A DNA stretch of 64,000 bases from an uncultured Bacilli bacterium (GTDB lineage: Bacteria > Bacillota_I > Bacilli_A > RF39 > UBA660): positions 35,781-99,780 of the forward strand of contig CAKOQQ010000001.1 of the NCBI GenBank assembly GCA_934101425.1. The letters are read 5' to 3'. How positions within the stretch are numbered: position 1 is the first letter of the stretch; each line of letters starts with the position of its first letter. This document shows, piece after piece, positions 8,004 to 54,115 of this stretch. The notes under the pieces were generated by a model, which was given only the letters and a program-made list of their open reading frames with translations, ran no database searches and had not been told where the DNA came from. A program made the translations under genes and the position numbers.

Positions 8004-8031
8004 AGAAAAAAAATGAACTTTTATGTTCATT
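8004..8031 (-). terminator. Rho-independent terminator after pilin gene 8027..8950
   Basis: Hairpin AATGAAC-ataaaa-GTTCATT followed by a run of 9 T on the minus strand. It overlaps the stop codon. Confidence 0.6.
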
Positions 8032-8950: not shown

Positions 8951-8971
8951 ATATCCTCCTCTATTTATAAG

Positions 8972-9007
8972 AAAACAAAAAAACAAAAAAACTAGGAATT
9001 TCCTAGG
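8972..9007 (-). terminator. Terminator-like or attenuator hairpin plus U-tract in the pilin leader (copy A)
   Basis: Minus-strand stem CTAGG-AAATT-CCTAG followed by TTTTTTTGTTTTTTTG. It lies between an upstream small ORF and the pilin RBS. Copy B at 45758..45792 has the same arrangement with a G.U-compensated stem. Confidence 0.45.
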
Positions 9008-17728: not shown

Positions 17729-18598
17729 TTACTCCTTTACATTTAATATTTCTAAAATTCTATTTAAATCTGCAACATTAGTAAAAGATATTTCAATTTT
17801 TTTATCTTTTATTTTAATTTTAGTATCAAGTTTATCTCTTAATAAATCTTCTACATACTTATAATCATTATTATCAACTTTTTTAGTAATTTTAACTTTC
17901 TTTTCTTCTTTTGAAGAAATATCTTCTACATCACGTACTGTAATATTTTCTTCATCTATTTTATGAGCTAACCTAATAATTTCTTCATCACTTTCAAGCT
18001 TACTTAATGCTCTAGCATGCCCCATACTTATTTTACCTTTAGAAACTAATTCTTGAACTTCACTAGGTAATCTAAGCAAACCAATTACATTAGTTATATA
18101 ACTTCTACTTTTACCAACTTTAGTACTTAAATTTTCATGAGTCATATGACTCTTTTCTAATAATTGTTTATAAGCTAAAGCTTCTTCAATTGGATTTAAA
18201 TTTTCTCTTTGAATATTTTCTAGTAATGAAATTTCTGCCATTTGTTCATCAGTAAATGGTCTTACTATTGCAGGAACTTTATCTAAACCAGCTAATTTAG
18301 AAGCTCTATATCTTCTTTCACCAGCAATAATTTCATAACCTTTAACACTCTTTTTAACAATAATAGGTTGAATAATACCATGTTCTTTAATTGATACTGC
18401 AAGTTCAGTTAACTTTTCAGGATCAAATTCTTTTCTAGGTTGATAAGGATTAGGTCTTAATTCAGATACATCAATTTCTACTATTTCTTCTTTAGGAGTA
18501 GATTCATAAATCTTTTTTTCGATACCCTCTAAATCTAAATTTTCATTATTGAATAATTGTTCTAACCCCATACCTAAAGCTCTTTTTCTATTTTCCAT
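17729..18598 (-). CDS. parB: Chromosome partitioning protein ParB/Spo0J
   Basis: ParB box (IQPIIVKK...YEIIAGERRYRAS) and an HTH. Its start overlaps the end of parA. Confidence 0.85.
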   Translation of the reverse strand: MENRKRALGMGLEQLFNNENLDLEGIEKKIYESTPKEEIVEIDVSELRPNPYQPRKEFDPEKLTELAVSIKEHGIIQPIIVKKSVKGYEIIAGERRYRASKLAGLDKVPAIVRPFTDEQMAEISLLENIQRENLNPIEEALAYKQLLEKSHMTHENLSTKVGKSRSYITNVIGLLRLPSEVQELVSKGKISMGHARALSKLESDEEIIRLAHKIDEENITVRDVEDISSKEEKKVKITKKVDNNDYKYVEDLLRDKLDTKIKIKDKKIEISFTNVADLNRILEILNVKE

Positions 18599-19373
18599 TT
18601 CTTAAAATAACCTCCTTTGCTAAATTAAGATATGCATCAGTACCTTTATTTCTTGGATCATAAGCAATAATTGGTTTACCATGTGATGGTGCTTCTGATA
18701 ATCTAACTAATCTAGGAATTATAGTATCATATACTTTTTCCTTAAAATAACTTCTTACATCTTCAGCTACTTCAAGTCCTAGTAATGTTCTACTATCTAA
18801 CATAGTTAGTAAAACACCTTCTATACTTAAAGTAGGATTTAAGTTCTTTTGTGCAAACATAATAGTATTTATAAGTTGCATAACACCTTCTAGTGCAAAA
18901 AATTCACATTGAATAGGTATTAATACTGAATCTGCTGCAGTTAATGCATTAGTAGTTAAAATACCTAAACTAGGTGGACAATCAATTATTATGTAATCAA
19001 ATACTTCTTTAGCTGCTTCAATATGTTTTTTTAGTTGCATACTTCTATTAAAAGTATTATCCACACTGCCCATTTGAATAAATTCAACATCTATACCAGC
19101 TAAGTTAACAGTAGCAGGTATTATATATAAATTTTTAAACTTTGTTTTAATAATAACTTCTTTTAAATTAGCTTTATTAGTTAATAATTCATATACGCTT
19201 TTATTATAATCTTTTTTAGATACGCCAAGTCCTGTAGTGCTATTACCTTGAGGATCTAGGTCTATTAAAAGGGCTTTTTTACCTAAAACACCTAATGATG
19301 CTGATAAATTTATACTAGTAGTAGTCTTACCTACACCGCCTTTTTGATTAACTAACGCTATAATTTTGCCCAT
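18588..19373 (-). CDS. parA: Chromosome partitioning ATPase ParA/Soj
   Basis: Deviant Walker A motif KGGVGKTTTSINL. 261 aa. Confidence 0.85.
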   Translation of the reverse strand: MGKIIALVNQKGGVGKTTTSINLSASLGVLGKKALLIDLDPQGNSTTGLGVSKKDYNKSVYELLTNKANLKEVIIKTKFKNLYIIPATVNLAGIDVEFIQMGSVDNTFNRSMQLKKHIEAAKEVFDYIIIDCPPSLGILTTNALTAADSVLIPIQCEFFALEGVMQLINTIMFAQKNLNPTLSIEGVLLTMLDSRTLLGLEVAEDVRSYFKEKVYDTIIPRLVRLSEAPSHGKPIIAYDPRNKGTDAYLNLAKEVILRNGK

Positions 19374-19827: not shown

Positions 19828-21441
19828 TTATTCACTTAATTCTTTTTCTAATTTACCTTGTTTATCACCAAGTATACTTCTTTGTTCATTTACTTTATTT
19901 ATAGCAGAATTTATAGTATCTATATAAGTTACAAAGTTTGGTGTACCATTTGTTCTTACCCCAAGAGCTGATGATGTAAATGTATATTTTAGAAGTCCTA
20001 ATTCTTTATCAATCGAATTACCTATTTTTAATACTTGGATACTATTAAAAGTAGTTTCATTATATATTCTATCTATTTCATCTTGTAAAGCTACCATTTC
20101 CTCCATGATAGAATTTATATCAGAATTACTATTACCATTAGCAGCTTTAACTGATAATTCATTCATTCTTTGTAATATACTATGAGTTTCTGTTAGTGCT
20201 CTTTCCATTATCTTTATCGCACTAATTAGATTTCGTTTATATGAATCCATATCATCAGGGTTTAATTCTTTGCCTACTAATTTATCTAATATAACCTTAT
20301 TAGCAGTTATTTTATCATCAGTTATATTATTTATATCAATAATAGTTAAGCCTGTTGCACTAAATTTCAAACTAGAATCATTTACTGAATTAGCTATTTC
20401 ATCTAAATTTCTTTTAAATAAAGTATTTGCTTCTATAATAAGTGCTTTTTTATCTATTTCAGTATTAGTAGCCATTAAAGCTTGTACATGTAACTCTTGA
20501 GCTCTAGATAATACTTTAGTATATAAAGCTCTTTTACAAGCCTCATCTGCACATGATTCTAAAGATTTACTATATTCTAATGAATTTTGATATGCTCCAA
20601 ATATACTTCTTTGTTCACTTACTTTATTTATAGCAGATTCTATTCTTTTCATATAATCTTTAAAATCAGGAGTTGTTCTTTGCTTTACATCTAATCCTTC
20701 TGAATTAATAGTATATTTTAATAAATCTACTATTTCATTAAACATATTATCTTCTTGTAAAACTTTTTCATTTTGAAAAGATGTTTCATTATATATTCTA
20801 TCTATTCCATCTTGTAGCTCTATTAGTTCATCCATAATAGAAGCTATATCAGAACTTGTATTAGTATCATTTGCAGCTTTAACTGATAATTCATTCATTT
20901 TTTGTAATATGCCATGAGTTTCTGTTAGTGCTCCTTCAGCAACTATAATTTCACGTAATAATAAATCATTAAAATTGGCACTTGACTTACTAACACAACT
21001 AGCACTAGTAGTAAACTCTTCTATTAAAAATTTATCTTCTTCTATACTATAATAATTACAATATTTATCATTATAAAATACTGCTGACACTAGTAATCTA
21101 TTAGTCTTACGAATATATCCTGTAGTATCATTCAAAGCTTTATCCATACTTACCGTTTCATTTTCTACTGTTACACCTTTAAGTTCTAAAACATTAATTT
21201 TACCTTCTGTTAATGAATAATAACTATCTTTCTCATCACCATTTAAAAAATCATAATTATTTACACTTCTCATTACACTTTGTACAGAAGCTTTAAAAGC
21301 TTCTCTTTTTGAGTCTTCTACAATATTTAATACAGCAGGTACCGCTATTGCTGCAATTATTGCTAGTATTACTATTACTGCGAGTAACTCTATTAGTGTA
21401 AATCCTTTCTTACTTTTATAATTACCTTTTACTTTCTTCAT
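19828..21441 (-). CDS. Type IV pilin-like protein fused to two tandem flagellin D1-like units (pilin-flagellin chimera)
   Basis: The N-terminus MKKVKGNYKSKKGFTLIELLAVIVILAIIAAIAVPAVLNIVEDSKRE is a prepilin signal. The body contains AEGALTETHGILQKMNELSVKAANDTNTSSDIASIMDELIELQDGIDRIYNETSFQNEKVL. This is near-identical to the B. subtilis Hag D1 N-helix (AEGALTETHAILQRVRELVVQAGN...EIDGISNRTEFNGKKLL). It also contains IESAINKVSEQRSIFGAYQNSLEYS, matching the Hag D1 C-helix (AINQVSSQRAKLGAVQNRLEHT). A second unit follows (ALTETHSILQRMNELSVKAANGNSNSDINSIMEEMVALQDEIDRIYNETTFN; INSAINKVNEQRSILGDKQ). The flagellin D0 termini are absent. Confidence 0.85.
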   Translation of the reverse strand: MKKVKGNYKSKKGFTLIELLAVIVILAIIAAIAVPAVLNIVEDSKREAFKASVQSVMRSVNNYDFLNGDEKDSYYSLTEGKINVLELKGVTVENETVSMDKALNDTTGYIRKTNRLLVSAVFYNDKYCNYYSIEEDKFLIEEFTTSASCVSKSSANFNDLLLREIIVAEGALTETHGILQKMNELSVKAANDTNTSSDIASIMDELIELQDGIDRIYNETSFQNEKVLQEDNMFNEIVDLLKYTINSEGLDVKQRTTPDFKDYMKRIESAINKVSEQRSIFGAYQNSLEYSKSLESCADEACKRALYTKVLSRAQELHVQALMATNTEIDKKALIIEANTLFKRNLDEIANSVNDSSLKFSATGLTIIDINNITDDKITANKVILDKLVGKELNPDDMDSYKRNLISAIKIMERALTETHSILQRMNELSVKAANGNSNSDINSIMEEMVALQDEIDRIYNETTFNSIQVLKIGNSIDKELGLLKYTFTSSALGVRTNGTPNFVTYIDTINSAINKVNEQRSILGDKQGKLEKELSE

Positions 21442-21759: not shown

Positions 21760-24666
21760 CTATCTAGTTCTTCCACCAGTAGTATTTTCATTTACTTCTT
21801 CTGGAGGAGTTAATCCTAATGCTGCATAGAAGTTATTAGCATCATCTAATGAAATACTACTATCCATACTATTTTCTGATTGTACTTCTACAGGTGCTGG
21901 TGGTTCTACTGGCAATTCATAAATAGGTTCACTGCCAGCATGCCCAACTGGAACAAATTCTTCTTTTATAAGTTCATCATTTTCATTAACTTTTGAATCT
22001 TTTGATTCTTCAGGAGTTTTATTTACGTCATCATATGAAATTCCTAATGATTCATAGAAATCTTTAACATCATCTTCTGAAATTCCACTATCTAATTTAT
22101 TTTCACTTGAACTTGGATTTCCATTTGGATTATTTTTATCAACTGTAACATTTACTTGATTTCCATTTTTTTCTGCATCAATTATAGAATCTCCATAATT
22201 TGCATCTATATTACCATTATCATTATATACATATTCTCCACTACCATTTATTATAGATTCACCTGGATTTAATATAATTTCACTTAAATCTGGTGTAACT
22301 GGAGTTGGATCCGGAGTTACAGGTGTTGGATCTGGTGTAACTGGAGTTGGGTCCGGAGTTACAGGCGTTGGATCCGGTGTAACTGGAGTTGGATCTGGTG
22401 TAACTGGAGTTGGATCTGGTGTAACTGGAGTTGGATCCGGAGTTACAGGTGTTGGATCTGGTGTAACTGGAGTTGGGTCCGGAGTTACAGGCGTTGGATC
22501 CGGTGTAACTGGAGTTGGGTCTGGAGTTACAGGTGTTGGATCAGTATTTGATGGTGTAGAAGGTGTAGTTGGAGTCTTATCAGGAGTTGTTTTATCTGTC
22601 TTTGTTGGTGTTTCAGTATTAGTATTATTTTTTTCTTCTTCTAAATCATCAAAGTTAAATGTAGGCATTTCTACTTCATCTACTATGCCAGTAGTTGGAG
22701 CATCACTTATATTTCTAGTATTTGCATCACAACCTTTTAATCCTACTAAAAGCCCTGCTACTACTAATCCTCCAGCAGCAATTTGTTTCTTATGTTTTTT
22801 AACCCATTCTAATGCTTCTTTACCTTTTTCTCTCATTTTTTTACCAAGGTCTTTTAAAGCAACTATTACGCCTTTCTTTTCAGCGTCATTTTTTAATTCG
22901 TTAGATGCTGGTTCAAAAGCAACAACTGGAACTACTGTTTTACCTTTATCTTTTTCAGGTTCTACTACTGGAGCAACTGGTACTACTGTAGTTTTTTCTT
23001 CCTTTTCTTCTTCTTTAGTTTCTTCAGCAGCTGGAACAAGAATATTTTTAGGAATTTCAACCTTAAGTAATTCTTTACCATCTGGTCCAAAAATTACTAT
23101 AAAGTTTCTTCCATCTTTATCTTGGTTAACAACACCATTTAATGGTGTTGCACCTGTACCAAGTACAAATGGAACTGCTGTTTTATCTTTTTCTTCAGGT
23201 TCTACTACTGGAGCAACTGGTGTCACTGGAGTTTCTTCTTTAGCTTTTTCTTCAGCTTCTTTCTTTTCTGCTTCTTTTTTAGCTTTTATAGAAGCATCTA
23301 AATCACCAACTATATGATCTATAGTTTCAGAAACATTGAATTCAATAAATGCTAATCTTGATTTAGTAGCTGCTATACCTGCAACTAATTCATCTCTTTC
23401 AATTCTATCTAATCTTTGTTGTGATTTATTTATTTTCTTAGCATCTTCAGCTATTTCTTTATTTATTTTTTCTATTTCTGTTTTTAATGGTTTTGTTAAT
23501 TCTCTTAATCTATCAATATTACCACTTAACATGCCTTTTTCACTTCTTAAAGTATGCATTGTAGTCATATTTCTAGTAATTTCTTGATTTTTTCTTTCAA
23601 TTTCAGCTCTTAGGTGTTTTCTCATTGGATGGTTTTGACTAGGTAGACCATCCATTTCTTTTTGTCTTTGTTCAATTATTCTTTGAGCTGATATATTTGC
23701 AGCTTCTAACTTACGAACTTCATTATTAATTTCTGCAATTCTAGCTCCATTAGCTTTAATTTCATCAGTATAACTATCTAAGTCATTTTGTTTAGATTCT
23801 TTTATTTCAGTTAATCTAGCACCTAAAACACCACGATAATTATCTTCATTTGATAATTTTTCTTCTAATTCAGCTAATCTGGGTTCATATTTAGCTAATG
23901 CATCTTCTAGTTGTATTCTTTCTTCACTTCTAGCTGCTGCATCTCTAAGTAAGAATTGTTTAGGTAATCTATCTCTATATTCTTCTAACTTAGCCATTAC
24001 AACTTCTTCACTAATGTTACCTCTTTCAACATCAGTAATTAAATCATTTAATGAAGTTGCAAAATTATATTCAGCTAACATAGATTCAGTACTAGCATTC
24101 TTAATTTCAGTATTTAATCTAGTTATTTCAGCTCTATCAGCATCTTTTAATGCTTCAATATCAACTGTTGCACTACCTGTAGTAGCTTCTTCTTGTTCTT
24201 TTATTGCTTCTTCAAGTTCATGTATGTTAGCATTTAATTCTTCTAAGTCGCTATTTCTTTTAGCAGCTCTTCTTTCTAATCTTTGAATATTAGAATCTAA
24301 AGTAGTAAGTAAAGCTTGATCATTATATTGTTCAGCTAATTCTCTATTTTTTCTTTCTTGTTCTAATCTTCTATCGATACCAATAATATCAGCTGCAAGT
24401 CTATCACTTCTAGCAATCATATCTTCTAAGTCTACTTTATTTTGTTCAACACTATTGTCATATAAAGCAACTCTACCAGTTCTATAATTTTCATCATTTT
24501 TTAATTTTTCTTCTAATTCGCTAATTCTTCTTTCAGCACGTTCAGTAACTCTTCTTGCTTGATCAAATCTTTTAGCTTGTTCACTAATAGTTACTTCATC
24601 TAATCCGTCAATAGGTAATTGACTTTTTAAATCTCTTAGACTTTTTAATATTTCTTCTCTTTCCAT
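21760..24666 (-). CDS. Large membrane protein with four parts. There is an N-terminal coiled coil of about 470 aa, then a single transmembrane segment, then a PT-rich linker of 14 tandem DPTPVTP repeats, and a C-terminal region.
   Basis: 968 aa with no signal peptide. The first ~470 aa is a heptad-rich R/E/L/A/D-rich sequence. The hydrophobic segment is IAAGGLVVAGLLVGL. The tandem repeat is (DPTPVTP)x14. Two C-terminal motifs have the pattern DDxxxFYxxLG(I/L). Confidence 0.6.
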   Translation of the reverse strand: MEREEILKSLRDLKSQLPIDGLDEVTISEQAKRFDQARRVTERAERRISELEEKLKNDENYRTGRVALYDNSVEQNKVDLEDMIARSDRLAADIIGIDRRLEQERKNRELAEQYNDQALLTTLDSNIQRLERRAAKRNSDLEELNANIHELEEAIKEQEEATTGSATVDIEALKDADRAEITRLNTEIKNASTESMLAEYNFATSLNDLITDVERGNISEEVVMAKLEEYRDRLPKQFLLRDAAARSEERIQLEDALAKYEPRLAELEEKLSNEDNYRGVLGARLTEIKESKQNDLDSYTDEIKANGARIAEINNEVRKLEAANISAQRIIEQRQKEMDGLPSQNHPMRKHLRAEIERKNQEITRNMTTMHTLRSEKGMLSGNIDRLRELTKPLKTEIEKINKEIAEDAKKINKSQQRLDRIERDELVAGIAATKSRLAFIEFNVSETIDHIVGDLDASIKAKKEAEKKEAEEKAKEETPVTPVAPVVEPEEKDKTAVPFVLGTGATPLNGVVNQDKDGRNFIVIFGPDGKELLKVEIPKNILVPAAEETKEEEKEEKTTVVPVAPVVEPEKDKGKTVVPVVAFEPASNELKNDAEKKGVIVALKDLGKKMREKGKEALEWVKKHKKQIAAGGLVVAGLLVGLKGCDANTRNISDAPTTGIVDEVEMPTFNFDDLEEEKNNTNTETPTKTDKTTPDKTPTTPSTPSNTDPTPVTPDPTPVTPDPTPVTPDPTPVTPDPTPVTPDPTPVTPDPTPVTPDPTPVTPDPTPVTPDPTPVTPDPTPVTPDPTPVTPDLSEIILNPGESIINGSGEYVYNDNGNIDANYGDSIIDAEKNGNQVNVTVDKNNPNGNPSSSENKLDSGISEDDVKDFYESLGISYDDVNKTPEESKDSKVNENDELIKEEFVPVGHAGSEPIYELPVEPPAPVEVQSENSMDSSISLDDANNFYAALGLTPPEEVNENTTGGRTR
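22292..22542. repeat. Coding tandem repeat with a 21-nt unit (42-nt super-unit), about 12 copies, encoding DPTPVTP
   Basis: ggtgtaactggagttggatcc / ggagttacaggtgttggatct alternate on the plus strand within CDS 21760..24666. Confidence 0.85.
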
Positions 24667-28513: not shown

Positions 28514-29443
28514 CTATATTTCTTTTATATCTTCGAAGTTATTAGGGAAACCTAATTTCATAAGTAAAGTTTCTTTAGATAAAGTAAGTATTTTACTTTC
28601 AAGTATCTTCATTTCGTAATTAAACTCATTAAAAAAATCATTAAAATCTGATTTAGTTAATAATTCCTTTAACATTATAATAACTGAGAATAAATCATTT
28701 TTACCATATATATACTCATCATCTATTTTATTTATCTTTAATATTTCATGAATTTTATTATCAGGAATAGACTTTTGAGTTCTATTAGAATATAACATAT
28801 CTTCATGAGCACATAAATTTCTATAGTTTGCAAGTATACTTAAATATATTTTCATAGTATCAACTGAGACACCAAAATAAGCAGCTATTTCAGTTTGATC
28901 TTCTATTGTTAATATGCTATAAAATTCAGATACAATACCTAAAGAAAGTACTTTTACTAAGATCCATAAAGGTATATAACCGTAATTATTTATATAGTGC
29001 AAAGTAGCTGAATGTTTAGTTCCATTAACTCTTATTTGTCTTTTCATTTTATTTAATACATCTTTTACTTGTCTACTCTTTAATGGATCTTGATTAAAAT
29101 TCTTAGGATTTAAATAATCTCTATCTTTAAACCCATACTTTTTAGAAAGTTGATAACTCATAATAGACTTAATATTGTTTTCAATAACTAAAATGTTTTT
29201 AAAAAATATATTTCTTATTCTTCTATCAAAAGTAAAAACTCCATAAAGTTCATCAAAAGTAGTACCATCTATATATTTATCTTCTCTAGTATTTTGCATA
29301 AATAAATGTCTATATCCATTTAAGAAAAAATAATTTTCACGAAGTAAAATTTCTTTTGCTCTATCATAATCTTCTACGATTAACCCTCTTGACTCTAAAA
29401 TATCAATTTGTTCATTAATTGTCTTAAATATTTTGCTCTTCAT
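28514..29443 (-). CDS. Abi_2 family abortive-infection protein (AbiD/AbiF-like)
   Basis: The N-terminus (FKTINEQIDILESRGLIVEDYDRAKEILLRENYFFLNGY) matches the Abi_2 N-terminal region, which has the form IDEQIELLKSRGL...YYRLSGY. 309 aa. Confidence 0.65.
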   Translation of the reverse strand: MKSKIFKTINEQIDILESRGLIVEDYDRAKEILLRENYFFLNGYRHLFMQNTREDKYIDGTTFDELYGVFTFDRRIRNIFFKNILVIENNIKSIMSYQLSKKYGFKDRDYLNPKNFNQDPLKSRQVKDVLNKMKRQIRVNGTKHSATLHYINNYGYIPLWILVKVLSLGIVSEFYSILTIEDQTEIAAYFGVSVDTMKIYLSILANYRNLCAHEDMLYSNRTQKSIPDNKIHEILKINKIDDEYIYGKNDLFSVIIMLKELLTKSDFNDFFNEFNYEMKILESKILTLSKETLLMKLGFPNNFEDIKEI

Positions 29444-32382: not shown

Positions 32383-32412
32383 TTTACAAAAAAAGATAGA
32401 ATAATCTATCTT
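32383..32412 (-). terminator. Rho-independent terminator of pilin paralog A
   Basis: AAGATAGA-ataa-TCTATCTT followed by TTTTTTTG on the minus strand. It overlaps the stop codon. Confidence 0.6.
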
Positions 32413-33647
32413 AATTTATCTCTACTTACTTCTATAACTGGGCGCACACCGGGGCCGCTTGCATTAGCCACGTTGTTGTCGTGGCTCAAGATGCCAATGT
32501 AGTAAACGGTAAAAGCGGTGTTAAAATTGCCGGAATATGCAGTATTTGTCCAGTATGCACCGGCACTAGAATCAGCTACATTACATCCATATGTTGTACA
32601 TTCTCTTGTATTATCAAATAGCCATGCATATCTGTTTGTTCCTGCTGCTCCTTTGTATTCTGTATTTGAATTTGTATGGAAGTAATAACGGTTATTATTC
32701 CAATTTGGATATCCTGTTATTTTTGCTATTTCACTTGCTTCTATTAGTCTAGCTGTACTTTTAACAGCACCATTCCAAGAAGCTATATCATTTTCTAATT
32801 GTGTTTTTACTTCAACTGGACCATTGGCATTTTTTCCACTTGATGCCCATGCAACTTTTGCTGTTGTATTATGATCTAGTAGTAAATTAACTGTATTATT
32901 TCCTTCATCATTAAATGCATACCATTTCATACATCCATTACTTTTACTAGTATTTGATGTAGCTTCTTCTTTAGAACAAACACTATTACTATTTGGATTA
33001 AAATATATAGCTGTTCCATTTGCATATTTATTATTTGATACATATACATTTCTATATACTGTCGAGCTTATTCCTTTTGTATCTGTAGCTGTATATTTTA
33101 CTTGATATATTCCTTCAGCACTCATCACTAAATTACTTTTATCTATAACTATATTTGATATGGCATTACCATCAGAATCAGTTGCAGAGGCACCAAGTTC
33201 AGTATAAGTAGCATTTAAATTATAAGTAACCATTGGTGATCCATTAAAATTTATTATAGGAGACTTTTCTCCATCTCTAGTAGTAATAGTACTTTCTACT
33301 ATATCATAAGTATAAGTTTCACCTTTTTTCTTTATTTCAATTGTAAGAGCATCATCAAAATATTTATCATCATTAGGATTTTTTACTTCTTTTTTTATTA
33401 GTCCTGAACTTTTTAATTGACCTAATGTTATTTTAACAACAAATTCTTCTTTTCTTGGAAGTAAGCCTGAATTAGCACTTGCATAAGCCTGAACTGCTTC
33501 TATTATTGTACTTATTTGTGTATTATAAGCTTTTTCTTTTGATTGCTTTATATATTTATTTACTGATGGTACTGCAATTACTAGTATTAGCGACAATATA
33601 ACTATTACTGCTAGTAATTCTACTAATGTAAAACCTTTCTTTTTCAT
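32406..33647 (-). CDS. Pilin-like protein (class III signal) with a DUF5011 Ig-like domain and a C-terminal DUF1566/lectin-like domain. Tandem paralog A.
   Basis: The N-terminus is MKKKGFTLVELLAVIVILSLILVIAVPSVNKYIKQSKEKAY. The Ig-like segment is GSPMVTYNLNATYTELGASATDSDGNAI...YQVKYTATDTKGISSTVYRNVYV. The C-terminal domain (MKWYAF...ARLIEASEIAKITGYPNW...YWTNTAY...GVRPVIEVS) resembles DUF1566. Confidence 0.7.
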   Translation of the reverse strand: MKKKGFTLVELLAVIVILSLILVIAVPSVNKYIKQSKEKAYNTQISTIIEAVQAYASANSGLLPRKEEFVVKITLGQLKSSGLIKKEVKNPNDDKYFDDALTIEIKKKGETYTYDIVESTITTRDGEKSPIINFNGSPMVTYNLNATYTELGASATDSDGNAISNIVIDKSNLVMSAEGIYQVKYTATDTKGISSTVYRNVYVSNNKYANGTAIYFNPNSNSVCSKEEATSNTSKSNGCMKWYAFNDEGNNTVNLLLDHNTTAKVAWASSGKNANGPVEVKTQLENDIASWNGAVKSTARLIEASEIAKITGYPNWNNNRYYFHTNSNTEYKGAAGTNRYAWLFDNTRECTTYGCNVADSSAGAYWTNTAYSGNFNTAFTVYYIGILSHDNNVANASGPGVRPVIEVSRDKLR

Positions 33648-33669
33648 ATTATTCCTACTTTCTACATTA

Positions 33670-33698
33670 ATTATATTTATTTATCTTTTATAAGTCAA
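33670..33698 (-). promoter_or_regulatory. Perfect consensus sigma-A promoter TTGACT-17-TATAAT for paralog A
   Basis: Minus strand: -35 TTGACT (plus 33693..33698), a 17-nt spacer, and -10 TATAAT (plus 33670..33675). It lies directly downstream of paralog B's terminator. Confidence 0.6.
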
Positions 33699-33708
33699 GA
33701 AATAAAAA

Positions 33709-33728
33709 AAGATAGAATATTCTATCTT
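33709..33728 (-). terminator. Rho-independent terminator of pilin paralog B
   Basis: Perfect 20-bp palindrome AAGATAGAATATTCTATCTT followed by a run of 7 T. Confidence 0.6.
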
Positions 33729-35002
33729 AATTTACTTTTTAATACGGTAATAACTGGGCGAACACCGAGGAAGTCTGAATCAGCCACGTCGGTGCTGTAG
33801 AAGGAGCCCTCGTTGGACACGAACCAAGCGAAGCCAGAACTGCCGGAATATGCAGTATTTGTCCAGTATCCATAAGTACTAGAATCTGCTACATTACATC
33901 CATATGTTGTACATTTATATGTATTATCAAATAGCCATGCATATTTGTTTGTTCCTGCTGCTCCTTTATATTCTGTTTGTGTATTATCATGAAAATAATA
34001 CCCGTTATTATTCCAATTTGGATATCCTGTTATAGTAGCTATTTCACTTGCTTCTATTAGTCTAGGGTTTAAACTACTTTTCCAAGCTTTTGTATCGCTT
34101 TTTAGTTGTTTTAATGCTGTAATTGGGCCTTTACTATTATTTCCATAACTCCCATACTCCGCTTCTGTTCCACCAGCTTCAATATAATCTTCTTTTGATG
34201 CCCACGCAACTTCATCTGTCGTATTATGGTCTAGTATTAACTTTATATAAAGACTTCCATCATCTAAAAAACTATACCATTTCATACACCCATTACTTTT
34301 ACTTGTATTTATACTAGCTTCTTCTTTAGAACAAACACTATTACTGTTAGGATTAAAATATATAGTTGTTCCATTTGCATATTTATCTTTTATTACATAT
34401 ACATTTCTATATACTGTTGAGCTTATTCCTTTTGTATCTGTTACTGTATACTTTACTTGATATATTCCTTCAGTACTCATAACTAAATTACTTTTATTTA
34501 TAACTATATTTGTTAAAGCTTTTCCATCAGAATCAGTTGCTGAGGCACCTAAATCATTATATGTATCATTTAAATTATAAATAACCATTGGTGATCCATT
34601 TAAAGTTATCTTAGGAGCTTCTTCTCCATCTCTAGTAGTAATAGTGTTTTCTACTACTTCATATATATAATTTTCTTTATTTTTCTTTATTTTAATTGTA
34701 AGTGCATCATCAAAGTATTTATCATCATTAGGATTTTTTACTTCTTCTTTTATTAACCCTGCACTTTTTAATTGACCTAATGTTATTTTAACAGATATAT
34801 TTTCTCTATTTGGAAGTAACTCAAGATTTGTGCTTGCATAAGCCTGTGCTGCTTCTATTATTGTACTTATTTGTGCATCATATGCTTTTTCTTTTGATTG
34901 CTTTATATATTTATTTACTGATGGTACTGCAATTACTAGTACTAGTGATAATATAATTATTACTGCTAATAATTCTACTAATGTGAAACCTTTCTTTTTC
35001 AT
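33722..35002 (-). CDS. Pilin-like protein with DUF5011 Ig-like and DUF1566-like domains. Tandem paralog B.
   Basis: 426 aa. It has the same N-terminal prepilin sequence and the same C-terminal GVRPVITV...KLR ending as paralogs A and C. Confidence 0.7.
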   Translation of the reverse strand: MKKKGFTLVELLAVIIILSLVLVIAVPSVNKYIKQSKEKAYDAQISTIIEAAQAYASTNLELLPNRENISVKITLGQLKSAGLIKEEVKNPNDDKYFDDALTIKIKKNKENYIYEVVENTITTRDGEEAPKITLNGSPMVIYNLNDTYNDLGASATDSDGKALTNIVINKSNLVMSTEGIYQVKYTVTDTKGISSTVYRNVYVIKDKYANGTTIYFNPNSNSVCSKEEASINTSKSNGCMKWYSFLDDGSLYIKLILDHNTTDEVAWASKEDYIEAGGTEAEYGSYGNNSKGPITALKQLKSDTKAWKSSLNPRLIEASEIATITGYPNWNNNGYYFHDNTQTEYKGAAGTNKYAWLFDNTYKCTTYGCNVADSSTYGYWTNTAYSGSSGFAWFVSNEGSFYSTDVADSDFLGVRPVITVLKSKLR

Positions 35003-35021
35003 ATTATTCCTACTTTCTACA

Positions 35022-35050
35022 TTAATTATATTTATTTATCTTTTATAAGT
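35022..35050 (-). promoter_or_regulatory. Perfect consensus sigma-A promoter TTGACT-17-TATAAT for paralog B
   Basis: -35 at plus 35045..35050, a 17-nt spacer, and -10 at plus 35022..35027. Confidence 0.6.
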
Positions 35051-35062
35051 CAAGAAATAAAA

Positions 35063-35082
35063 AAGATAGAATATTCTATCTT
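35063..35082 (-). terminator. Rho-independent terminator of pilin paralog C
   Basis: The same AAGATAGAATATTCTATCTT palindrome followed by a T-run. Confidence 0.6.
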
Positions 35083-36332
35083 AATATACTTCTTGATACA
35101 GTGATAACTGGGCGCACACCGTAATTTGAACGGACAACTTGATAATAACGTAATACTCCATCAGAATCAATTATCCAAGCATAATCATTAAATCTAGTAT
35201 ATGCAGTGTTTGTCCAATATCCAAAAGTACTAGAATCAGCTACATTACATCCATATGTTGTACAAGAGCTTGTATTATCAAATAGCCATGCATATTTGTT
35301 TGTTCCAACACTTCCTGTATATTCTGTTGTACTATTATTATGCAAATAATAATAATCTGCACCAGCTGTCCAACTAGGATTATCAGTTATTGTAGCTATT
35401 TCACTTGCTTCTATTAGTCTAGCTGTACTTTTAATAGCACTATTCCAAGAAGCTATATCACTATTTAATTGTGTTAATACTTCTTGTGGGCCATCTTCAT
35501 TAGTACCACTAGATGCCCATGCAACTGTTGCTGTCGTATTATGATCTAATAATAAAGTCATTTTTTCACTAGTTCCATTATCTAATATACTATACCATTT
35601 CATACAACCTGTTTTAGTGCCTGTTGTGCTTACTGCTTCAGCACTAGTACATTTAGCATTTGTAACTGGGTTATAATAGTATACTCGACCACTTACTAAA
35701 TTAGATACTGCACCATCTCTTACTACTACATTTCTATATATTGTTGTAGTAGTTCCATATGAATCAGTTGCTGTATATTTAATATAATATACACCTTTTA
35801 CACTCATATCTAGTGATGATGAATCAACATTAACATCACTTATTACTTTTCCATTATAGTCATAGGCACTAGAGCCTTCTTCTTGATAAGAAGAATTTAT
35901 ACTATAATAAACTACTGTATTTCCTGTCAATTTTATTGAAGGACTATTATTAGTAGTTTCTCTTACCTTTATAGTATCCTCATCTATTTCATATGTATAT
36001 CTATTACCTTTTTTCTTTATAATAAAAGTTAATGCATCATCAAAGTATTTATCATTATAAGGATTTTTTGTATCATTTTTTACAATACCTTCTATCTTTA
36101 ATTGACCTAATGTTATTTTTATTATTTCATCATCGTTTTCTGGCAATATTTCATTATTCATGTTGGCATATGATTCTACAGCATCTAATAATTCACTTAT
36201 TTGAACTTTATATGCTTTTTCTTTTGATTGTTTTATATATCTATTTACTGATGGGACAGCAATTACTAATATTATTGATAATATTACTATTACAGCGAGT
36301 AACTCTACTAACGTAAATCCCTTTTTATTCAT
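35076..36332 (-). CDS. Pilin-like protein with DUF5011 Ig-like and DUF1566-like domains. Tandem paralog C.
   Basis: 418 aa. The N-terminus is MNKKGFTLVELLAVIVILSIILVIAVPSVNRYIKQSKEKAY. It shares the C-terminal domain and ends GVRPVITVSRSILR. Confidence 0.7.
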   Translation of the reverse strand: MNKKGFTLVELLAVIVILSIILVIAVPSVNRYIKQSKEKAYKVQISELLDAVESYANMNNEILPENDDEIIKITLGQLKIEGIVKNDTKNPYNDKYFDDALTFIIKKKGNRYTYEIDEDTIKVRETTNNSPSIKLTGNTVVYYSINSSYQEEGSSAYDYNGKVISDVNVDSSSLDMSVKGVYYIKYTATDSYGTTTTIYRNVVVRDGAVSNLVSGRVYYYNPVTNAKCTSAEAVSTTGTKTGCMKWYSILDNGTSEKMTLLLDHNTTATVAWASSGTNEDGPQEVLTQLNSDIASWNSAIKSTARLIEASEIATITDNPSWTAGADYYYLHNNSTTEYTGSVGTNKYAWLFDNTSSCTTYGCNVADSSTFGYWTNTAYTRFNDYAWIIDSDGVLRYYQVVRSNYGVRPVITVSRSILR

Positions 36333-36357
36333 ATTTTTCCTACTTTCTACTATATTA

Positions 36358-36386
36358 ATTATATTTATTTATTTTTTATAAGTCAA
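36358..36386 (-). promoter_or_regulatory. Consensus sigma-A promoter TTGACT-17-TATAAT for paralog C
   Basis: -35 at plus 36381..36386 and -10 at plus 36358..36363. Confidence 0.55.
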
Positions 36387-36495
36387 GATTTGATTTATAT
36401 ATCATATAAATTAGTAATAATAGGTTTTTTATTCACACCCTTTTTAAGTAAGTGAATATCCTATTAATGAAAATAAATGAAGGGGTGGATTATAT

Positions 36496-36930
36496 ATGTG
36501 TAATAATAATGAGACAAATAATACTTCATGCATATCTGAAATTTTAGCTGTTATATGTCTTTTACAACAAAACGCTAGTTGCTGTGGTGACACTTGCCTA
36601 GATACTTGTGATAGAGGTTTCTTAGGTTGTGGAACTACTAGTTTAGGTTGTAATACAAGACCTATAATTCTATATACGACTGCAGGAAACGGAACACCAT
36701 TTTCTATGCCAACCACTAAAACAGCATTAACTTGTGATGGTGCTACTTGCTCCAGTGTATGCAGAATTGAAAAAATAGATGGAAATTGTGCAACATTTAG
36801 AGTATTACAAGAAAATACAGATCAAACATCAGCTTATCCTTATGAAGCTACAAACTCATTTTTTACAATGAATTTAAATTGCTTATGTGCAATTAGATGC
36901 TTAAATGATACTTACGTAGAATGCATATAA
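36496..36930 (+). CDS. cotZ: CotY/CotZ-family spore coat or exosporium protein (Cys-rich)
   Basis: 144 aa. DGNCATFRVL and LNCLCAIRCLND parallel B. subtilis CotZ (HGSCATLSLL and LDCFCAINCLNP). Confidence 0.7.
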   Translation: MCNNNETNNTSCISEILAVICLLQQNASCCGDTCLDTCDRGFLGCGTTSLGCNTRPIILYTTAGNGTPFSMPTTKTALTCDGATCSSVCRIEKIDGNCATFRVLQENTDQTSAYPYEATNSFFTMNLNCLCAIRCLNDTYVECI

Positions 36931-37289: not shown

Positions 37290-38519
37290 TTATTTTATAC
37301 CATGAGTACGAATATAATTATGTATTACTTTTGAGCCTTCCTTACCAATGTGATTTATATCACCACTTTTTTCATATCCACTTTTTAAATGTCCTTCGCT
37401 ATTTTTTAATGATTCAGCCACATTTAAGAAATATACATTTTCTTCTTCGCACATTTCAGCTAAATAGTAGTTATATTTGTTTATTTTTTCATTAGTTAAA
37501 TTACCTTTTAAACTAGTAGCTTTTGGTACTGGAAGTATTGATTGAATAACTACTACTGTATTTGGACTAGATTCTTTTATTTCTTTTATTAATTCTCTAT
37601 AGTTAGATATAAAGAAATCTTTTTCTTCTGTTGCAACAGAATTTTCACCAAGAGCGATAATTATTTTTTTTGGCTTCTTTTCTTTTACCATTTCTACTAA
37701 TGTTTTACCGGTTTCTTGATAATTTACATCTATTTTAGCCGTTAACATTTGTTCTGAAGTAGCTCCATTTTTCTTCCATAAAGCTACTGGATAATAACTT
37801 TTATAATATATGAAAGTAGAATCTCCAGCAAATACGAAACTATTCGCATAATTTTCTCCCATATCACTTGTTTCTTTTAATATAGCTTTAGTAAAATATC
37901 CATCTAAACTAAAATCAGTTAAAGATTGTTCAGTAGGACTATTGGTAACTACTTTTACTACTCTAGTTTCTTTAGCTTCATTACCACTATTATCTCTTAC
38001 AGTATATGATACTTCATATGTACCTTCTTTAGTACTATCTATATTATTAGTAATTTTTACATTTTTAGTAATATCTTTATCTAAATTATCTGATGCTGTA
38101 TAACCCGGTTCATTATATTTTTCGTTTTTCTTAAGTACTACAGTGCCACCTTTTAATATAATAGTTGGTTTTATACTATCTTTTATTCTAACTAATTTTT
38201 TAGTACTAACACTTTTTTTACCTTCCCTATAAGTAAAAGTTACTTCATATTTGCCACTTTTATAACTAATATCAGTTACTTCTACATTACTAGTTACATC
38301 TTTCTTCTTATAAGTAGCTTTAAAACTAATGTCTACACCACTTTCATTAGAAATAAAGTATTCTTCACTTATATTTATTTTTAAATTACTTTTAAATATT
38401 AATTTTATTAGTCCTATAAATAAGTATATTATTAAAAATAATACTACTAATGCTGTAAAAACTCTTTTATAATTTAATCTTCTTTTCTTTTTCTTAGCCA
38501 TTTTTATCCTCCATATCAT
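37290..38519 (-). CDS. Membrane-anchored protein with a DUF5011 Ig-like domain and a C-terminal SGNH/GDSL hydrolase domain
   Basis: N-terminal transmembrane helix. The Ig-like segment (IKPTIILKGG...YNEPGYTASDNLDKDIT...GTYEVSYTVRDNSGNEAKETRVVKV) is the same type of domain as in the tandem pilins. SGNH blocks present: VFAGDST, ALGEN, DINH. Confidence 0.6.
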   Translation of the reverse strand: MIWRIKMAKKKKRRLNYKRVFTALVVLFLIIYLFIGLIKLIFKSNLKINISEEYFISNESGVDISFKATYKKKDVTSNVEVTDISYKSGKYEVTFTYREGKKSVSTKKLVRIKDSIKPTIILKGGTVVLKKNEKYNEPGYTASDNLDKDITKNVKITNNIDSTKEGTYEVSYTVRDNSGNEAKETRVVKVVTNSPTEQSLTDFSLDGYFTKAILKETSDMGENYANSFVFAGDSTFIYYKSYYPVALWKKNGATSEQMLTAKIDVNYQETGKTLVEMVKEKKPKKIIIALGENSVATEEKDFFISNYRELIKEIKESSPNTVVVIQSILPVPKATSLKGNLTNEKINKYNYYLAEMCEEENVYFLNVAESLKNSEGHLKSGYEKSGDINHIGKEGSKVIHNYIRTHGIK

Positions 38520-38574: not shown

Positions 38575-39474
38575 CTATATTTTAGATAATACTGTTACTA
38601 ATCCTAAACTTGGTAAGTCAAGTGTCATATACCCATACTCACTATCAAACTCAGTTAATTCAATTAATGATACTTCTTCAGTATTAGGATTTATTAGCAT
38701 AACTAATAAATTATTCATTTCTTCTACTTTAGCGGCTTCACATGTAAATGTTAAAGTTATATTTTTATCATGAGTAAATGATAAAGTATTGCCTTCTTTT
38801 ATAGCTATATCATAAATAGGTGTTAAAGCATCATAATCTTCTACATTTACTTTTACTCCTGTAGTAGTTACTAAATTAGTTGTGTTTTTATTTAAAGCAT
38901 TAAGTAATTCTTCAAATGTAACTATTTCATCATCACTATTAAATCTTTCTACAGCCTTACTTACTAAAGTACTAGAATATCTTTTAGGATTAGATATATA
39001 TACTTTAATATTACTATTTCCAACTAAAATATTTTCTATGATAAAGCCTGCTCTACCATCTGTAAGTACTGGATTATCTTCTATTACTGGTGTTTCTATA
39101 GTGCATTCACTTTCATCTGTTTTAGTGCTTGTAATAGTTCCATTAGATGATACTTCAATGCAGTATCCTGATATATACATTTTACCACTTGCATTACCGT
39201 TAGTATCATAACTAAGTAATCCTTTTTTAGCTTGTTCTCCATCATATTTTAATGTGTTAGTGCTTAAATCAACATTAGAATTTGGCTTATTATCCATTTT
39301 ATTTTGCATATAATGTTTTTTTGCAGTGTCTACTATATTTCTTGCACTTGCTTCTGCTGCACTTTTCTTTGAGTCTTCTATAATATTTAATACTGCAGGG
39401 GTTGCAATTAGTGCTATTACTGCTAATATTACTATAACCGCTAATAGCTCTATTAATGTAAATCCTTTTTTCAT
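38575..39474 (-). CDS. Type IV pilin-like protein, paralog of 8027 and 44825
   Basis: MKKGFTLIELLAVIVILAVIALIATPAVLNIIEDSKK plus the shared ~125-aa N-terminal domain. I trimmed the start to the ATG that follows a GGAAG RBS. It appears co-transcribed with the upstream DUF368-like gene. Confidence 0.8.
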   Translation of the reverse strand: MKKGFTLIELLAVIVILAVIALIATPAVLNIIEDSKKSAAEASARNIVDTAKKHYMQNKMDNKPNSNVDLSTNTLKYDGEQAKKGLLSYDTNGNASGKMYISGYCIEVSSNGTITSTKTDESECTIETPVIEDNPVLTDGRAGFIIENILVGNSNIKVYISNPKRYSSTLVSKAVERFNSDDEIVTFEELLNALNKNTTNLVTTTGVKVNVEDYDALTPIYDIAIKEGNTLSFTHDKNITLTFTCEAAKVEEMNNLLVMLINPNTEEVSLIELTEFDSEYGYMTLDLPSLGLVTVLSKI

Positions 39475-39529
39475 ATAATCTTCCTTTTCACAAAAATAAT
39501 TATAACATACTATCAAATATTTTTAAATT

Positions 39530-44824: not shown

Positions 44825-45733
44825 CTATACCTTCATTGCAAACATCGTAGGGCCAAGGATTGGTAATGTTACAGTTGCATATCCATTTTTTTCGTCATAA
44901 TCACTTAAAGAAACAAAATATACTTTTCCAGTTTCAGAATCTACTTGTATAACTATTAAATCTTCTTTTGTTAGATTTTTAATACCTTCTGATTCTATAA
45001 TAAGTTCTATTTCTGAACTTGTTTCAAAAGATAATGTATTATTTTCTAAGATAGCGATATCATAAAAACTAGTAAATATTTCATAATTATTTAAATTAAT
45101 AACTTCGCCACTAGTATTTTTAATATTTTCTGTTGTATCAACAGACAAGTTAGTTAACATATCTTGTAAGTTCATTGTAGAATTTTCTTTATTGCGATTT
45201 TTTACTACTTCTCCAACAGTTTTGTTAAGATAAGCATCTGGCCTTGCTACATATGCGCCAATATTTGAGTTTCCTGATATAACTTTATTAACAGCAATAC
45301 CATTAAAAGCATCTGAAGCTACTGGATTATCAGTAGTTGTTGAATCATTTTCTATACTACATTCACTTTCTTTTACTTTGTCACTACTTACTGTTCCATC
45401 GCTTTTAATTTCTACACAGTAACCTGATACATACATTTTTCCATATGCATTACCATTCTTATCATAGCTTATAGATCCTTTAGTAGCTTGTTCACCATCA
45501 TATGCTAAAGTCTTTTTGGATAAGTCTATTGTTCCTATGCTTATGTTATCCATTAAATTTTGCATATAATATGATTTTGCTGCACTCACTATATTTCTTG
45601 CACTTGCTTCTGCTGCTGCTTTTTTAGAGTCTTCTATAATATTTAATACTGCAGGAGTTGCAATTAGTGCTATTACTGCTAGTATCACTATTACGGCTAA
45701 GAGCTCTATTAATGTAAATCCTTTCTTTTTCAT
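44825..45733 (-). CDS. Type IV pilin-like protein, paralog of 8027 and 38575
   Basis: MKKKGFTLIELLAVIVILAVIALIATPAVLNIIEDSKKAAAEASARNIVSAAK... Its N-terminal ~125 aa are near-identical to the other two. The C-terminal region is related to that of 38575. Confidence 0.8.
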   Translation of the reverse strand: MKKKGFTLIELLAVIVILAVIALIATPAVLNIIEDSKKAAAEASARNIVSAAKSYYMQNLMDNISIGTIDLSKKTLAYDGEQATKGSISYDKNGNAYGKMYVSGYCVEIKSDGTVSSDKVKESECSIENDSTTTDNPVASDAFNGIAVNKVISGNSNIGAYVARPDAYLNKTVGEVVKNRNKENSTMNLQDMLTNLSVDTTENIKNTSGEVINLNNYEIFTSFYDIAILENNTLSFETSSEIELIIESEGIKNLTKEDLIVIQVDSETGKVYFVSLSDYDEKNGYATVTLPILGPTMFAMKV

Positions 45734-52865: not shown

Positions 52866-53957
52866 TTATATCATACTTTTTATTAAATCTACTTTATTTA
52901 ATTTTTCATAACTTAAATTATTTTTACCAAAATGTCCAAAACAAGTAGTTTTAGTATAATCTAAATGTTTTAGATCTAACTCACTAATTATATTTTTAAC
53001 ACTAAAATCAAATACTTTATTTATTATACCTAGTATTTTTTCTTCAGATATTTTATTTGTATTAAATGTATTTATACTTATAGATATAGGATTTTTAACA
53101 CCTATTAAGTATGATACTTGTATTTCTATTTTATCAGTTATACCAGCAGCTACTACATTTTTAGCTACATATCTTGCATAATAAGCAGCACTTCTATCTA
53201 CTTTTGATGGATCTTTTCCTGAAAAGGCTCCACCACCAACTTTAGCAAAAGAATGATAACTATCTACTACTATTTTTCTACCAGTTAATCCTGCATCACC
53301 ACTAAATCCCCCTATATTAAATCTACCTGTTGGATTAGTTATAAATTCATCTACAGATACATTATACTTATTACATATTTCTTTTGCTAATTTAATAATA
53401 ATTTTATCAGTTTCTTCTCTTTCTAACTCAGTATTTTGATAACAAATTGTAAAATTAGTTATTTTAATTAACTTATCATTATCATATAAACCAGTTATTT
53501 CAGCTTTACCATCAGGTAAAAATCTATTATCTTCTTTAACTAAATTAGCATATGCTTCACTAAATAATTGTAGTATTACCATAGAAACTGGTAAATAATA
53601 TTCGGTATCATTAGTAGCATAGCCAAACATCATACCATTATCACCAGCACCATTTACTTCTTCATTAGTACCAAGAGCTATATCAGTACTTTGAACTCCT
53701 AAATTATTTATTATTTCATAATTAGTATCATATCCAACAGAATCAAGTACAGCCTTAACTATTTTTTCTACGTTGATACTTGCTTTTGTTGTGACTTCTC
53801 CAGTTACAAATATTTTACCTTTACCACCACATACTTCTATACCACATCTTGAATTTTCATCAGACTTTAAACACACCTCTAAAATGGCATCACTTATTTG
53901 ATCACATACTTTATCTGGGTGTCCCCTAAATACTATTTCATTACTATATAACTTCAT
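52866..53957 (-). CDS. metK: S-adenosylmethionine synthase
   Basis: GHPDKVCDQISDA near the N-terminus and GGGAFSGKDPSKVDRSAAYYARYVAKNVVAAG near the C-terminus, both matching conserved MetK blocks. Confidence 0.9.
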   Translation of the reverse strand: MKLYSNEIVFRGHPDKVCDQISDAILEVCLKSDENSRCGIEVCGGKGKIFVTGEVTTKASINVEKIVKAVLDSVGYDTNYEIINNLGVQSTDIALGTNEEVNGAGDNGMMFGYATNDTEYYLPVSMVILQLFSEAYANLVKEDNRFLPDGKAEITGLYDNDKLIKITNFTICYQNTELEREETDKIIIKLAKEICNKYNVSVDEFITNPTGRFNIGGFSGDAGLTGRKIVVDSYHSFAKVGGGAFSGKDPSKVDRSAAYYARYVAKNVVAAGITDKIEIQVSYLIGVKNPISISINTFNTNKISEEKILGIINKVFDFSVKNIISELDLKHLDYTKTTCFGHFGKNNLSYEKLNKVDLIKSMI

Positions 53958-53989: not shown

Positions 53990-54115
53990 ATAAAGAAAAA
54001 ACACACTCAAAGATAACCATGAGTGTGTTATCTTATAGACTCTAGCATTACCACCTAACTAAATAGGTTGGTGTGATTTCATAGGGCTAGTCCCTCCATC
54101 ACTCTTTATAAGATG
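53990..54115 (-). ncRNA. SAM-I (S-box) riboswitch with an intrinsic terminator, in the metK leader
   Basis: Minus strand: CUUAUAAAGAGUGAUGGAGGGACUAGCCCUAUGAAAUCACACCAACC...GGUGGUAAUGCUAGAG...UAUAAGAUAAC, with P1 CUUAUA/UAUAAG and the GGAGGGAC-GCCC-AUGAA core. It is followed by the hairpin AACACACUCA...UGAGUGUGUU plus UUUUUU. Confidence 0.85.

Follow-up and report, generated by a model that had tools for sequence, protein, structure and literature searches.

Here, we describe three tandem genes, g1 to g3, in a stretch of 64,000 nt (the window) from the genome of an uncultured Bacilli bacterium, and discuss how the 3' ends of two of them were written. To our knowledge, diversity-generating retroelements (DGRs) are the only system of targeted protein hypermutation known in prokaryotes. 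The best overall explanation of the locus is probably that g1 to g3 encode modular type IV pilin-like proteins with adhesin tips that were written by a DGR, are now frozen, and are reshuffled by gene conversion. All three genes lie on the minus strand. The most upstream is g3 (35076..36332, 418 aa), followed by the middle paralog g2 (33722..35002, 426 aa) and the downstream paralog g1 (32406..33647, 413 aa), and these open reading frames (ORFs) bear out the three co-oriented paralogs described in an earlier note on this DNA. Comparison loci and contigs from other assemblies are numbered L001 to L062. We abbreviate variable region as VR, template repeat as TR, MutS-like gene as MSL and reverse transcriptase as RT.

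No part of the 64-kb window departs more strongly in G+C content than the last ~95 nt of g1 and g2 (0.52-0.58 against 0.27), which reach 0.53 and 0.60 in 90-nt windows at a mean of 0.266 (sd 0.065). The VR of g2 (33754..33847, minus strand) is a block of NNC codons that ends at the boundary GGTGTTCGCCCAG; its G+C content of 0.58-0.60 makes it the top outlier of the window. The VR of g1 (32438..32534, minus strand) is one codon longer and ends in GGTGTGCGCCCAG. In codon alignment the two tails share a scaffold of approximately TCC GGC nnT TCT nnC nnC GCT TGG nnC GTG nnC TnC nnT GGC nnC TTG nnC nnC nnC nnC GTG ... GGT GTk CGC CCA G. The statistics of this footprint were taken over eight independent G+C-rich tails: those of the window, those of the strains L001 and L002, and those of three further paralog loci (L003-L005). 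Of the invariant columns, 1/31 are adenine in the tails and 285/643 in the remainder of the gene (Fisher p=7e-7), and C at the third codon position reaches 46-61% in the tails versus 3-5% elsewhere in the gene. Variation in the tails falls on codon positions 1 and 2 (20, 22 and 11 columns at positions 1, 2 and 3, respectively), whereas position 3 dominates elsewhere. Between g1 and g2, dN/dS reaches 5.8 over the last 40 codons and stays at 0.1-1.1 along the other parts of the genes. This footprint points to a DGR that copied an AAC-rich template with random misincorporation opposite adenine, and we regard a DGR origin of the g1 and g2 tails as very likely. The homologous tail of g3 (35108..35198, minus strand) is not diversified. 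It keeps only the G+C-rich boundary GGTGTGCGCCCAG, has a third-position C of 7% and a G+C content of 0.28, like the rest of g3, and mismatches the templates of sister species at 36-49% of non-adenine positions. The footprint is found in g1 and g2 only. A second divergent stretch, which bears indels, covers alignment columns 245-323. The earlier note had placed the divergence in the middle of the proteins; the sharpest hotspot is instead the last ~30 codons. Diversifying selection on the middle, offered there as a cause, misses the mechanism; it is the C-terminal ~95 nt of g1 and g2 that carry the DGR footprint. Overall, most of what the note described holds, whereas its interpretation has to be replaced.

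Templates and complete DGR cassettes were found next to relatives of these genes in other species. We predicted the peptide that such a template would encode, placing Asn at every variable site, and a profile search with it led to a 64-aa ORF that had been called across a TR on contigs L039-L042. On these contigs the 3' end of a family member is followed, ~250 nt on, by an all-AAC copy of the same segment. In L040, the only locus with a demonstrated cognate pair, VR and TR differ at 18/34 adenines and at 1/69 other positions. The TR is unchanged at every adenine across five contigs, and the orthologous target carries a different VR in each of L039, L040, L042, L043 and L045. Searching with a small ORF downstream of the template led to full cassettes. 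The order in L043 is a 395-aa prepilin-type target with an N_methyl motif, the TR, a MutS_I gene, bAvd (PF22296), the RT, Bro-N genes and the block parA-parB-mscS-abgT-ychF-rpsF-ssb, and the RT is recognized by RVT_1 (E=8e-17) and by the motifs LPIGNMSSQ and YMDD. MSL-Avd-RT cassettes with N_methyl targets adjoin parA also in two further species-level groups (L049/50 and L051/52) and in L044; bAvd PF22296 and MutS_I were both found in L043, L044, L045, L049 and L051. ParA, ParB and YchF of the DGR-bearing contigs share 67-77% protein identity with those of the window and the parA block 70-75% nucleotide identity, which assigns these contigs to sister species; their G+C content is 0.24-0.28. 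In tblastn searches the L043 target matches g1-g3 at 33-39% identity (E values of 1e-40 to 1e-44). Over their C-terminal domains, the three window proteins can be aligned with the proven targets, with W, YWT and GVRPVI invariant, and in 10/11 targets having the boundary motif the stop codon ends exactly 32 nt past the CGCCCAG boundary. Judged by these sequences, the prepilin-type family is a proven DGR target in the sister species.

Some of the sister-species contigs show further peculiarities. In the P0157 cluster (L039, L041 and L042), one template body with its template-specific 5' flank is joined to at least six target-like 3' ends (…VITVLKTNLS, …VIEVLKSKLD, …VITVSKSQLG and others), and the same body is also joined to its own flank (…DFLRCLDLYG). 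All of these contigs are ≤1.3 kb long, and the joins are either assembly chimeras at the common boundary or real recombinants between template and target. In L045, the TR (1589..1697) has a different 5' half with a GGC AAC TTG scaffold and mismatches the adjacent VR (1190..1293), which is of the GCT … GTG type, and an IS21-family transposase pair comes after the RT. It seems that strains exchange variants of the template. In L046 (8238..10527) and L047 the MSL alone is kept, Avd and RT being missing. It lies beside a 390-aa protein with the same C-terminal domain, whose N-terminus resembles an ordinary signal peptide and whose tail is AT-rich and decayed. The locus is an independent case of DGR decay and shows the variable domain on a scaffold other than a pilin.

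The window itself has the chromosomal site and lacks the cassette. Its parA-parB-mscS-abgT-ychF-rpsF-ssb block lies at about 11.8-19.4 kb, and the slot upstream of parA (18588..19373, minus strand), the landmark of the sister-species DGR site, is without RT, Avd and MSL. The slot is filled by the gene of a 537-aa protein (19828..21441, minus strand) that matches PF07963 (E=1e-8) and Flagellin_N (E=8e-26) and has flagellin N- and C-terminal helical regions. The ParA protein of the window is present in exact form in 529 blocks of the collection. RT, Avd and MSL are absent from all 10 distinct ParA strain neighbourhoods returned (10/10), and the 537-aa prepilin/flagellin-type gene is kept in 9/10 of them, being absent in L056. 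Within the 64 kb there is no ORF with a YxDD motif and no tblastn match to the L043 RT, nor any tblastn match to Avd or MSL. Neither the window nor the syntenic loci L001-L005 contain a template detectable by BLAST with word size 7 or by regular expressions, and no RT was found near the paralogs L003, L004 and L005. The remaining G+C islands of the window, which correspond to rplB/rplD, tRNA-His and a Pro/Thr repeat, were weighed as possible templates and discarded.

The VR alleles of the window species are fixed within lineages. In clusters of 90% identity, dozens of contigs have one and the same VR despite variation at other residues, and 88/120 homologs among the matches listed have a nearly invariant g1 tail, with a few substitutions at most. 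Strains with 97-99% identical flanks carry different alleles in slot b, and these differences reach ~360 nt upstream of the VR. Slot a of L002 holds a mosaic, similar to g3 in its 5' part and to slot b in its 3' part. A 16-aa insertion cassette (KEDYIEAGGTEAEYGSYG..), carried by g2 and common to unrelated paralogs, is distributed out of step with overall similarity. The mosaic allele and the out-of-register cassette speak for the recombination among copies that had been suggested before. In the simplest reading, a DGR wrote the VRs in the past, and they are now stable alleles that tandem and dispersed paralogs exchange through homologous recombination. That the DGR system is inactive or lost in the species of the window is, in our estimate, fairly likely.

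The proteins have the build of modular pilins. The N-termini of g1-g3 read M(K/N)KKG-FTLVELLAVI and show the features of a class III signal peptide, namely a short basic leader, G at -1, F at +1, E at +5 and a hydrophobic alpha-1 helix. N_methyl (PF07963) scores above the Pfam cutoff in all three (E=2e-7 to 1.5e-6), and PF16403 (Bact_surface_Ig-like, i.e. DUF5011) reaches 44.5-53 bits at a gathering cutoff of 27. Thus, the prepilin N-terminus and the DUF5011 domain predicted for all three proteins are both there, and so is the DUF5011 domain predicted for the neighbouring SGNH hydrolase (37290..38519), a GDSL lipase in which PF16403 reaches 69.8 bits (cutoff 27). In g3 the leader MNKKG-FTLVE is followed by a pilin module, a DUF5011 Ig-like domain, a C-terminal DUF6273-like domain and the native AT-rich tail; g1 has the same type of architecture, and g2 has it with the insertion cassette added. 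A profile of the g1-g3 family matches the N-termini of solved type IV pilins, among them PilE1 (8pfb, E=5e-5), PilA and geopilin, and also the Ig domains of Clostridium perfringens ZmpB-type proteins. AlphaFold models the pilin part as a helix (residues 8-58) and a beta domain, with pLDDT 80-92. The Pfam matches and a promoter-like site before each gene support the view of the earlier note that g1-g3 are probably pilin-like modular surface proteins made from three separately promoted units. At least seven prepilin-type genes, with N_methyl or a pilin leader, are spread across the 64 kb (8027..8986, 19828..21441, 32406..36332, 38575..39516 and 44825..45733).

We propose the following course of events. 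A prepilin peptidase would process the products of g1-g3, and a type IV filament would then display them as adhesins. An AAC-rich TR would have been reverse-transcribed with random misincorporation opposite adenines (mutagenic retrohoming), and the cDNA would have replaced the target segment up to the G+C-rich boundary GGTGTKCGCCCAG. The outcome would be NNC codons on an invariant G/C/T scaffold in the last ~30 codons of g1 and g2, and the tail of g3 would either never have been diversified or have reverted to the native state. The RT would then have been lost rather than relocated. What is seen today would be a frozen DGR-made repertoire in three separately promoted and terminated copies, with strain differences that come from recombination of larger 3' segments among paralogs. 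On a wider scale, and more tentatively, since we rate it at a little under even chances, a low-G+C spore-forming uncultured gut clade may have a vertically inherited parA-adjacent DGR dedicated to type IV pilin-like tips, a display scaffold that is not known to be characterised for DGRs, and the window species may have lost this DGR, kept the frozen alleles in tandem and dispersed copies and now recombine them.

Several observations weigh against this proposal. The templates of the sister species mismatch the window VRs at 21-29% of non-adenine positions, compared with 1-6% in cognate pairs, and no cognate template for the window VRs was found. Individual features of the window scaffold do occur in separate sister templates (TCC AGC AAT TC in L049, GGC AAC TTG in L045 and GGT GTG CGC CCA G in L040). 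The sister templates thus fail as writers and share features of the scaffold, which suggests that the writer was an unobserved template of the same family. Genome contigs gave 0 matches to all-A exact template guesses or to tolerant N-patterns, and the VRs themselves were not recovered there either, so that the species is perhaps absent from this set or the VRs of its representative deviate. Viral contigs yielded 0 matches or unrelated phage templates that agree at ~25/51 scaffold positions, and a scan of metagenomes for the template returned only L006, a sibling template. The data comprise 64 kb of the genome, and a remote RT could act in trans. Among the ~27 window ORFs scanned, none encodes a prepilin peptidase, an assembly ATPase or a platform protein.

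The identity of the C-terminal domain belongs to the same side of the balance. The nearest Pfam model is DUF6273 (PF19789), which reaches 17.8-20.7 bits in the window genes and remains below its cutoff of 23.5. DUF1566/Lcl_C (PF07603), the assignment made in the earlier note, fails the Pfam thresholds: its best window match has 12.9 bits (E=0.14) at a cutoff of 34.9, in g3 only. The idea of a lectin-like variable C-terminus is among the parts of that note that are supported; its DUF1566 label is not supported. AlphaFold assigned a pLDDT <50 to the C-terminal domain in both models (full protein and domain alone), built on shallow alignments, and did not confirm a C-type lectin fold; a Foldseek search gave weak Ig matches only. 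Across the family, 11/14 members match DUF6273 at E<=1 (best 1.7e-5), in every case at profile positions ~103-170 of 172, that is at its C-terminal end, and PF07603 matches 4/14 members at E<=1. The C-terminal end of DUF6273 is also the part to which published DGR VRs have been mapped (PMC11792537, PMC10743442), and this agreement speaks for the proposal. A profile of the domain found no sequence match in the PDB except a sub-significant collagen IV NC1 motif (E=0.022), via the conserved C..A....YW.ST. Collagen IV NC1 is classed with the C-type-lectin-like folds. The putative C-terminal ligand-binding domain may be of the DUF6273 or C-type-lectin-like kind.

Among the other explanations, the one that survives best is that a DGR elsewhere in the genome still diversifies g1 and g2 in trans as remote targets, in the way of Treponema and Legionella, and that consensus assemblies hide the minority variants. 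The boundary GGTGTKCGCCCAG and a hairpin (8-bp stem, 4-nt loop) 25 nt downstream of it are intact, non-phage DGR targets at >100 kb from the RT are documented (PMC5758913), and the slot-b VRs do differ between strains with nearly identical flanks. However, a remote writer would have to leave the VRs identical across dozens of assemblies per allele cluster in which other residues vary, and the differences between strains extend well beyond the VR. Moreover, the conserved DGR site of the clade is empty in 10/10 neighbourhoods, and a template ORF with the right scaffold is absent from a collection of 5.8 billion proteins in which the template ORF of the sister species was found 14 times. We consider a remote active DGR unlikely. 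Far less probable is an origin without any retroelement, by ordinary point mutation under diversifying selection together with gene conversion, as the earlier note had it. Recombination among the copies is real and the mid-gene dN/dS is near 1, but this account leaves unexplained the switch to NNC codons, with its high third-position C in a genome of 27% G+C, the A-poor invariant columns (p=7e-7) and the nucleotide likeness to the AAC-rich templates of the sister species. Least credible of all is that the tails are short segments acquired horizontally from a G+C-rich donor, as the sharp compositional discontinuity might suggest, because many paralogs share this scaffold, as do sister species whose G+C is just as low (0.24-0.28); it is always in frame and at the same 32-nt distance to the stop, and it matches resident templates.

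The three copies are separated by intergenic units of almost the same sequence (73/74 identical between g3-g2 and g2-g1), as had been claimed. Each unit consists of a palindrome over the stop codon, a T-run, a TTGACT-17-TATAAT element and the ribosome binding site AGGA. The palindrome AAGATAGAATATTCTATCTT after g3 (35063..35082) is a perfect 20-bp palindrome with an 8-bp stem and a 4-nt loop, which overlaps the stop codon, starts 25 nt past the VR boundary and runs into the T-run, and the same palindrome follows g2 (33709..33728). After g1 (32393..32412) the stem and the T-run are kept and the loop is changed to TTAT, so that the perfect palindrome announced for every unit holds for two of the three genes. 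The hairpins fold better than shuffled controls (z = -2.8 to -5.1) and are followed by 6-7 U. Their stems contain only 2 G-C pairs, and a terminator scan does not call them because of its G-C criterion; the proposed palindromic terminator is therefore upheld as a stem-loop with a T-run and not as a terminator that passes the scan. The promoter-like sites lie at 36358..36386 upstream of g3 (with the AGGA site) and, from the promoter scan, at 35025..35053 upstream of g2 and 33670..33698 upstream of g1, all on the minus strand. Each is placed 8-9 nt past the T-run (~35 nt before the start codon) and matches the sigma-70-type consensus TTGACA/TATAAT at 11/12 positions; with TTGACT in place of TTGACA, the promoters are not the perfect consensus they were said to be.

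Homing of the DGR of phage BPP-1 needs a hairpin or cruciform downstream of the VR, with a stem of 7-10 bp and a 4-nt loop at a distance of 4-34 bp, and it is the structure of the stem that matters, not its sequence (PMC3240598). The window palindrome fits this geometry with its 8-bp stem, 4-nt loop and distance of 25 nt, but it is AT-rich, its loop is ATAT and not GRNA, and the T-run and promoter follow directly. The active targets of the sister species have weak hairpins only, and RNAalifold, run on an alignment that is unreliable, returned no consensus structure across lineages. We do not claim the palindrome as a DGR recognition element because no conserved hairpin was recovered across lineages; the T-run and promoter also adjoin it. 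It is primarily a weak, putative intrinsic terminator between three transcription units, and by analogy with BPP-1 a role in retrohoming is a possibility.

The surroundings of the array are of a more ordinary kind. Between g3 and the SGNH/DUF5011 gene, on the opposite strand, is a Cys-rich CotZ-like spore coat gene (36496..36930, plus strand; PF10612, E=5e-15), which keeps this position in L001 and L002. About 3 kb downstream of the pilin array, a gene of the Abi_2 family (28514..29443, minus strand; abortive-infection-like) has an htrA-like and a cwlD-like gene on either side. The protein encoded at 21760..24666 (minus strand, 968 aa) has no Pfam match and contains a G+C-rich tandem repeat of the Pro/Thr type (…TPDPTPVTP…) around 22380..22580. 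Strains differ in the length of this protein (916, 950, 951 and 968 aa in L057-L062), and in L053-L056 its gene is seemingly disrupted. A SAM riboswitch (54030..54114, minus strand) precedes metK (52866..53957), and an S10-Clostridia ribosomal leader lies at 7848..7955 (minus strand). Both are ordinary and fit a Firmicutes-type spore former with 26.6% G+C.

The organism of the window is very common in gut metagenomes and belongs to a widespread uncultured lineage of the Gram-positive type. Its species may stand for an evolutionary end state, in which orphan VRs persist with no retroelement in sight and the alleles are fixed and recombining. If this is true, nature would here provide a case in which retroelement hypermutation gave way to the shuffling of cassettes. 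It would open to test how DGR targets persist after loss of the RT, whether type IV filaments are able to carry bulky diversified lectin heads, and which partners these bacteria bind in the gut.

Most of the cellular DGR targets characterised in the gut are type V pilins of Bacteroides or receptor-binding proteins of phages. Among the closest known systems is the DGR of Legionella pneumophila (LdtA; MSL, Avd and RT). An accessory set of MSL and Avd defines architecture class D of Wu et al. 2018, with Legionella as the example and targets in the DUF1566-type CLec2 category (PMC5758913). The sister-species cassette likewise has a MutS-like gene, avd and an RT and is chromosomal, not phage-borne, and in both systems the VR sits at the extreme C-terminus of a lectin-like domain with weak, mixed DUF1566-type matches. 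They differ in that the proteins described here have a type IV prepilin leader in place of a lipoprotein signal, in that their nearest Pfam model is DUF6273 rather than DUF1566, and in that RT, Avd, MSL and TR are missing from the window. The DGRs of Bacteroides type V pilus tip adhesins (bioRxiv 10.1101/2024.11.15.621889) also belong to gut bacteria and place a diversified lectin-like C-terminal head on a pilin scaffold, some of them with Msl and Avd. However, theirs are type V lipoprotein pilins assembled by strand exchange, whereas here we find type IV prepilins with an N-terminal methylation motif; theirs are often borne by integrative conjugative elements or prophages and are active, whereas here the sister species have the cassette in the chromosome beside parA and the alleles of the window are frozen. 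The PilB protein of Streptococcus sanguinis offers a parallel for the scaffold, as a type IV pilin moiety with a grafted adhesive module that was proposed to set the binding specificity of the filament (PMC8179133). In such modular pilins the modules (vWA and others) are not hypervariable and are no targets of retroelements. No pil operon is visible around the window genes.

Phage DGR targets with DUF6273, in Faecalibacterium prophages (PMC11792537) and in the tentaclins (PMC10743442), are receptor-binding or decoration proteins, unlike the cellular prepilin-type proteins described here with their sub-cutoff matches. A parallel for the scattering of multiple paralogous targets in the genome, distant from the RT, is the TvpA DGR of Treponema denticola with its seven remote targets (PMC5758913). 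In that system RT and TR are present and the VRs obey their cognate TR, while neither a cognate TR nor an RT was found here. Prepilin or G-type pilin targets of DGRs appear in the literature in passing mentions, as 'scarcely represented' or as 'putative pilin structures'. Thus, the DGR mechanism, the class with MSL and Avd and the DGR-diversified type V pilus adhesins of Bacteroides were already known. What is new is the union of a DGR lectin-type tip with a type IV prepilin scaffold, to which an Ig spacer is added in some cases, the presence of the cassette at a fixed chromosomal position in several uncultured sister species, and the orphan frozen VRs in a tandem triplet of separately promoted genes.

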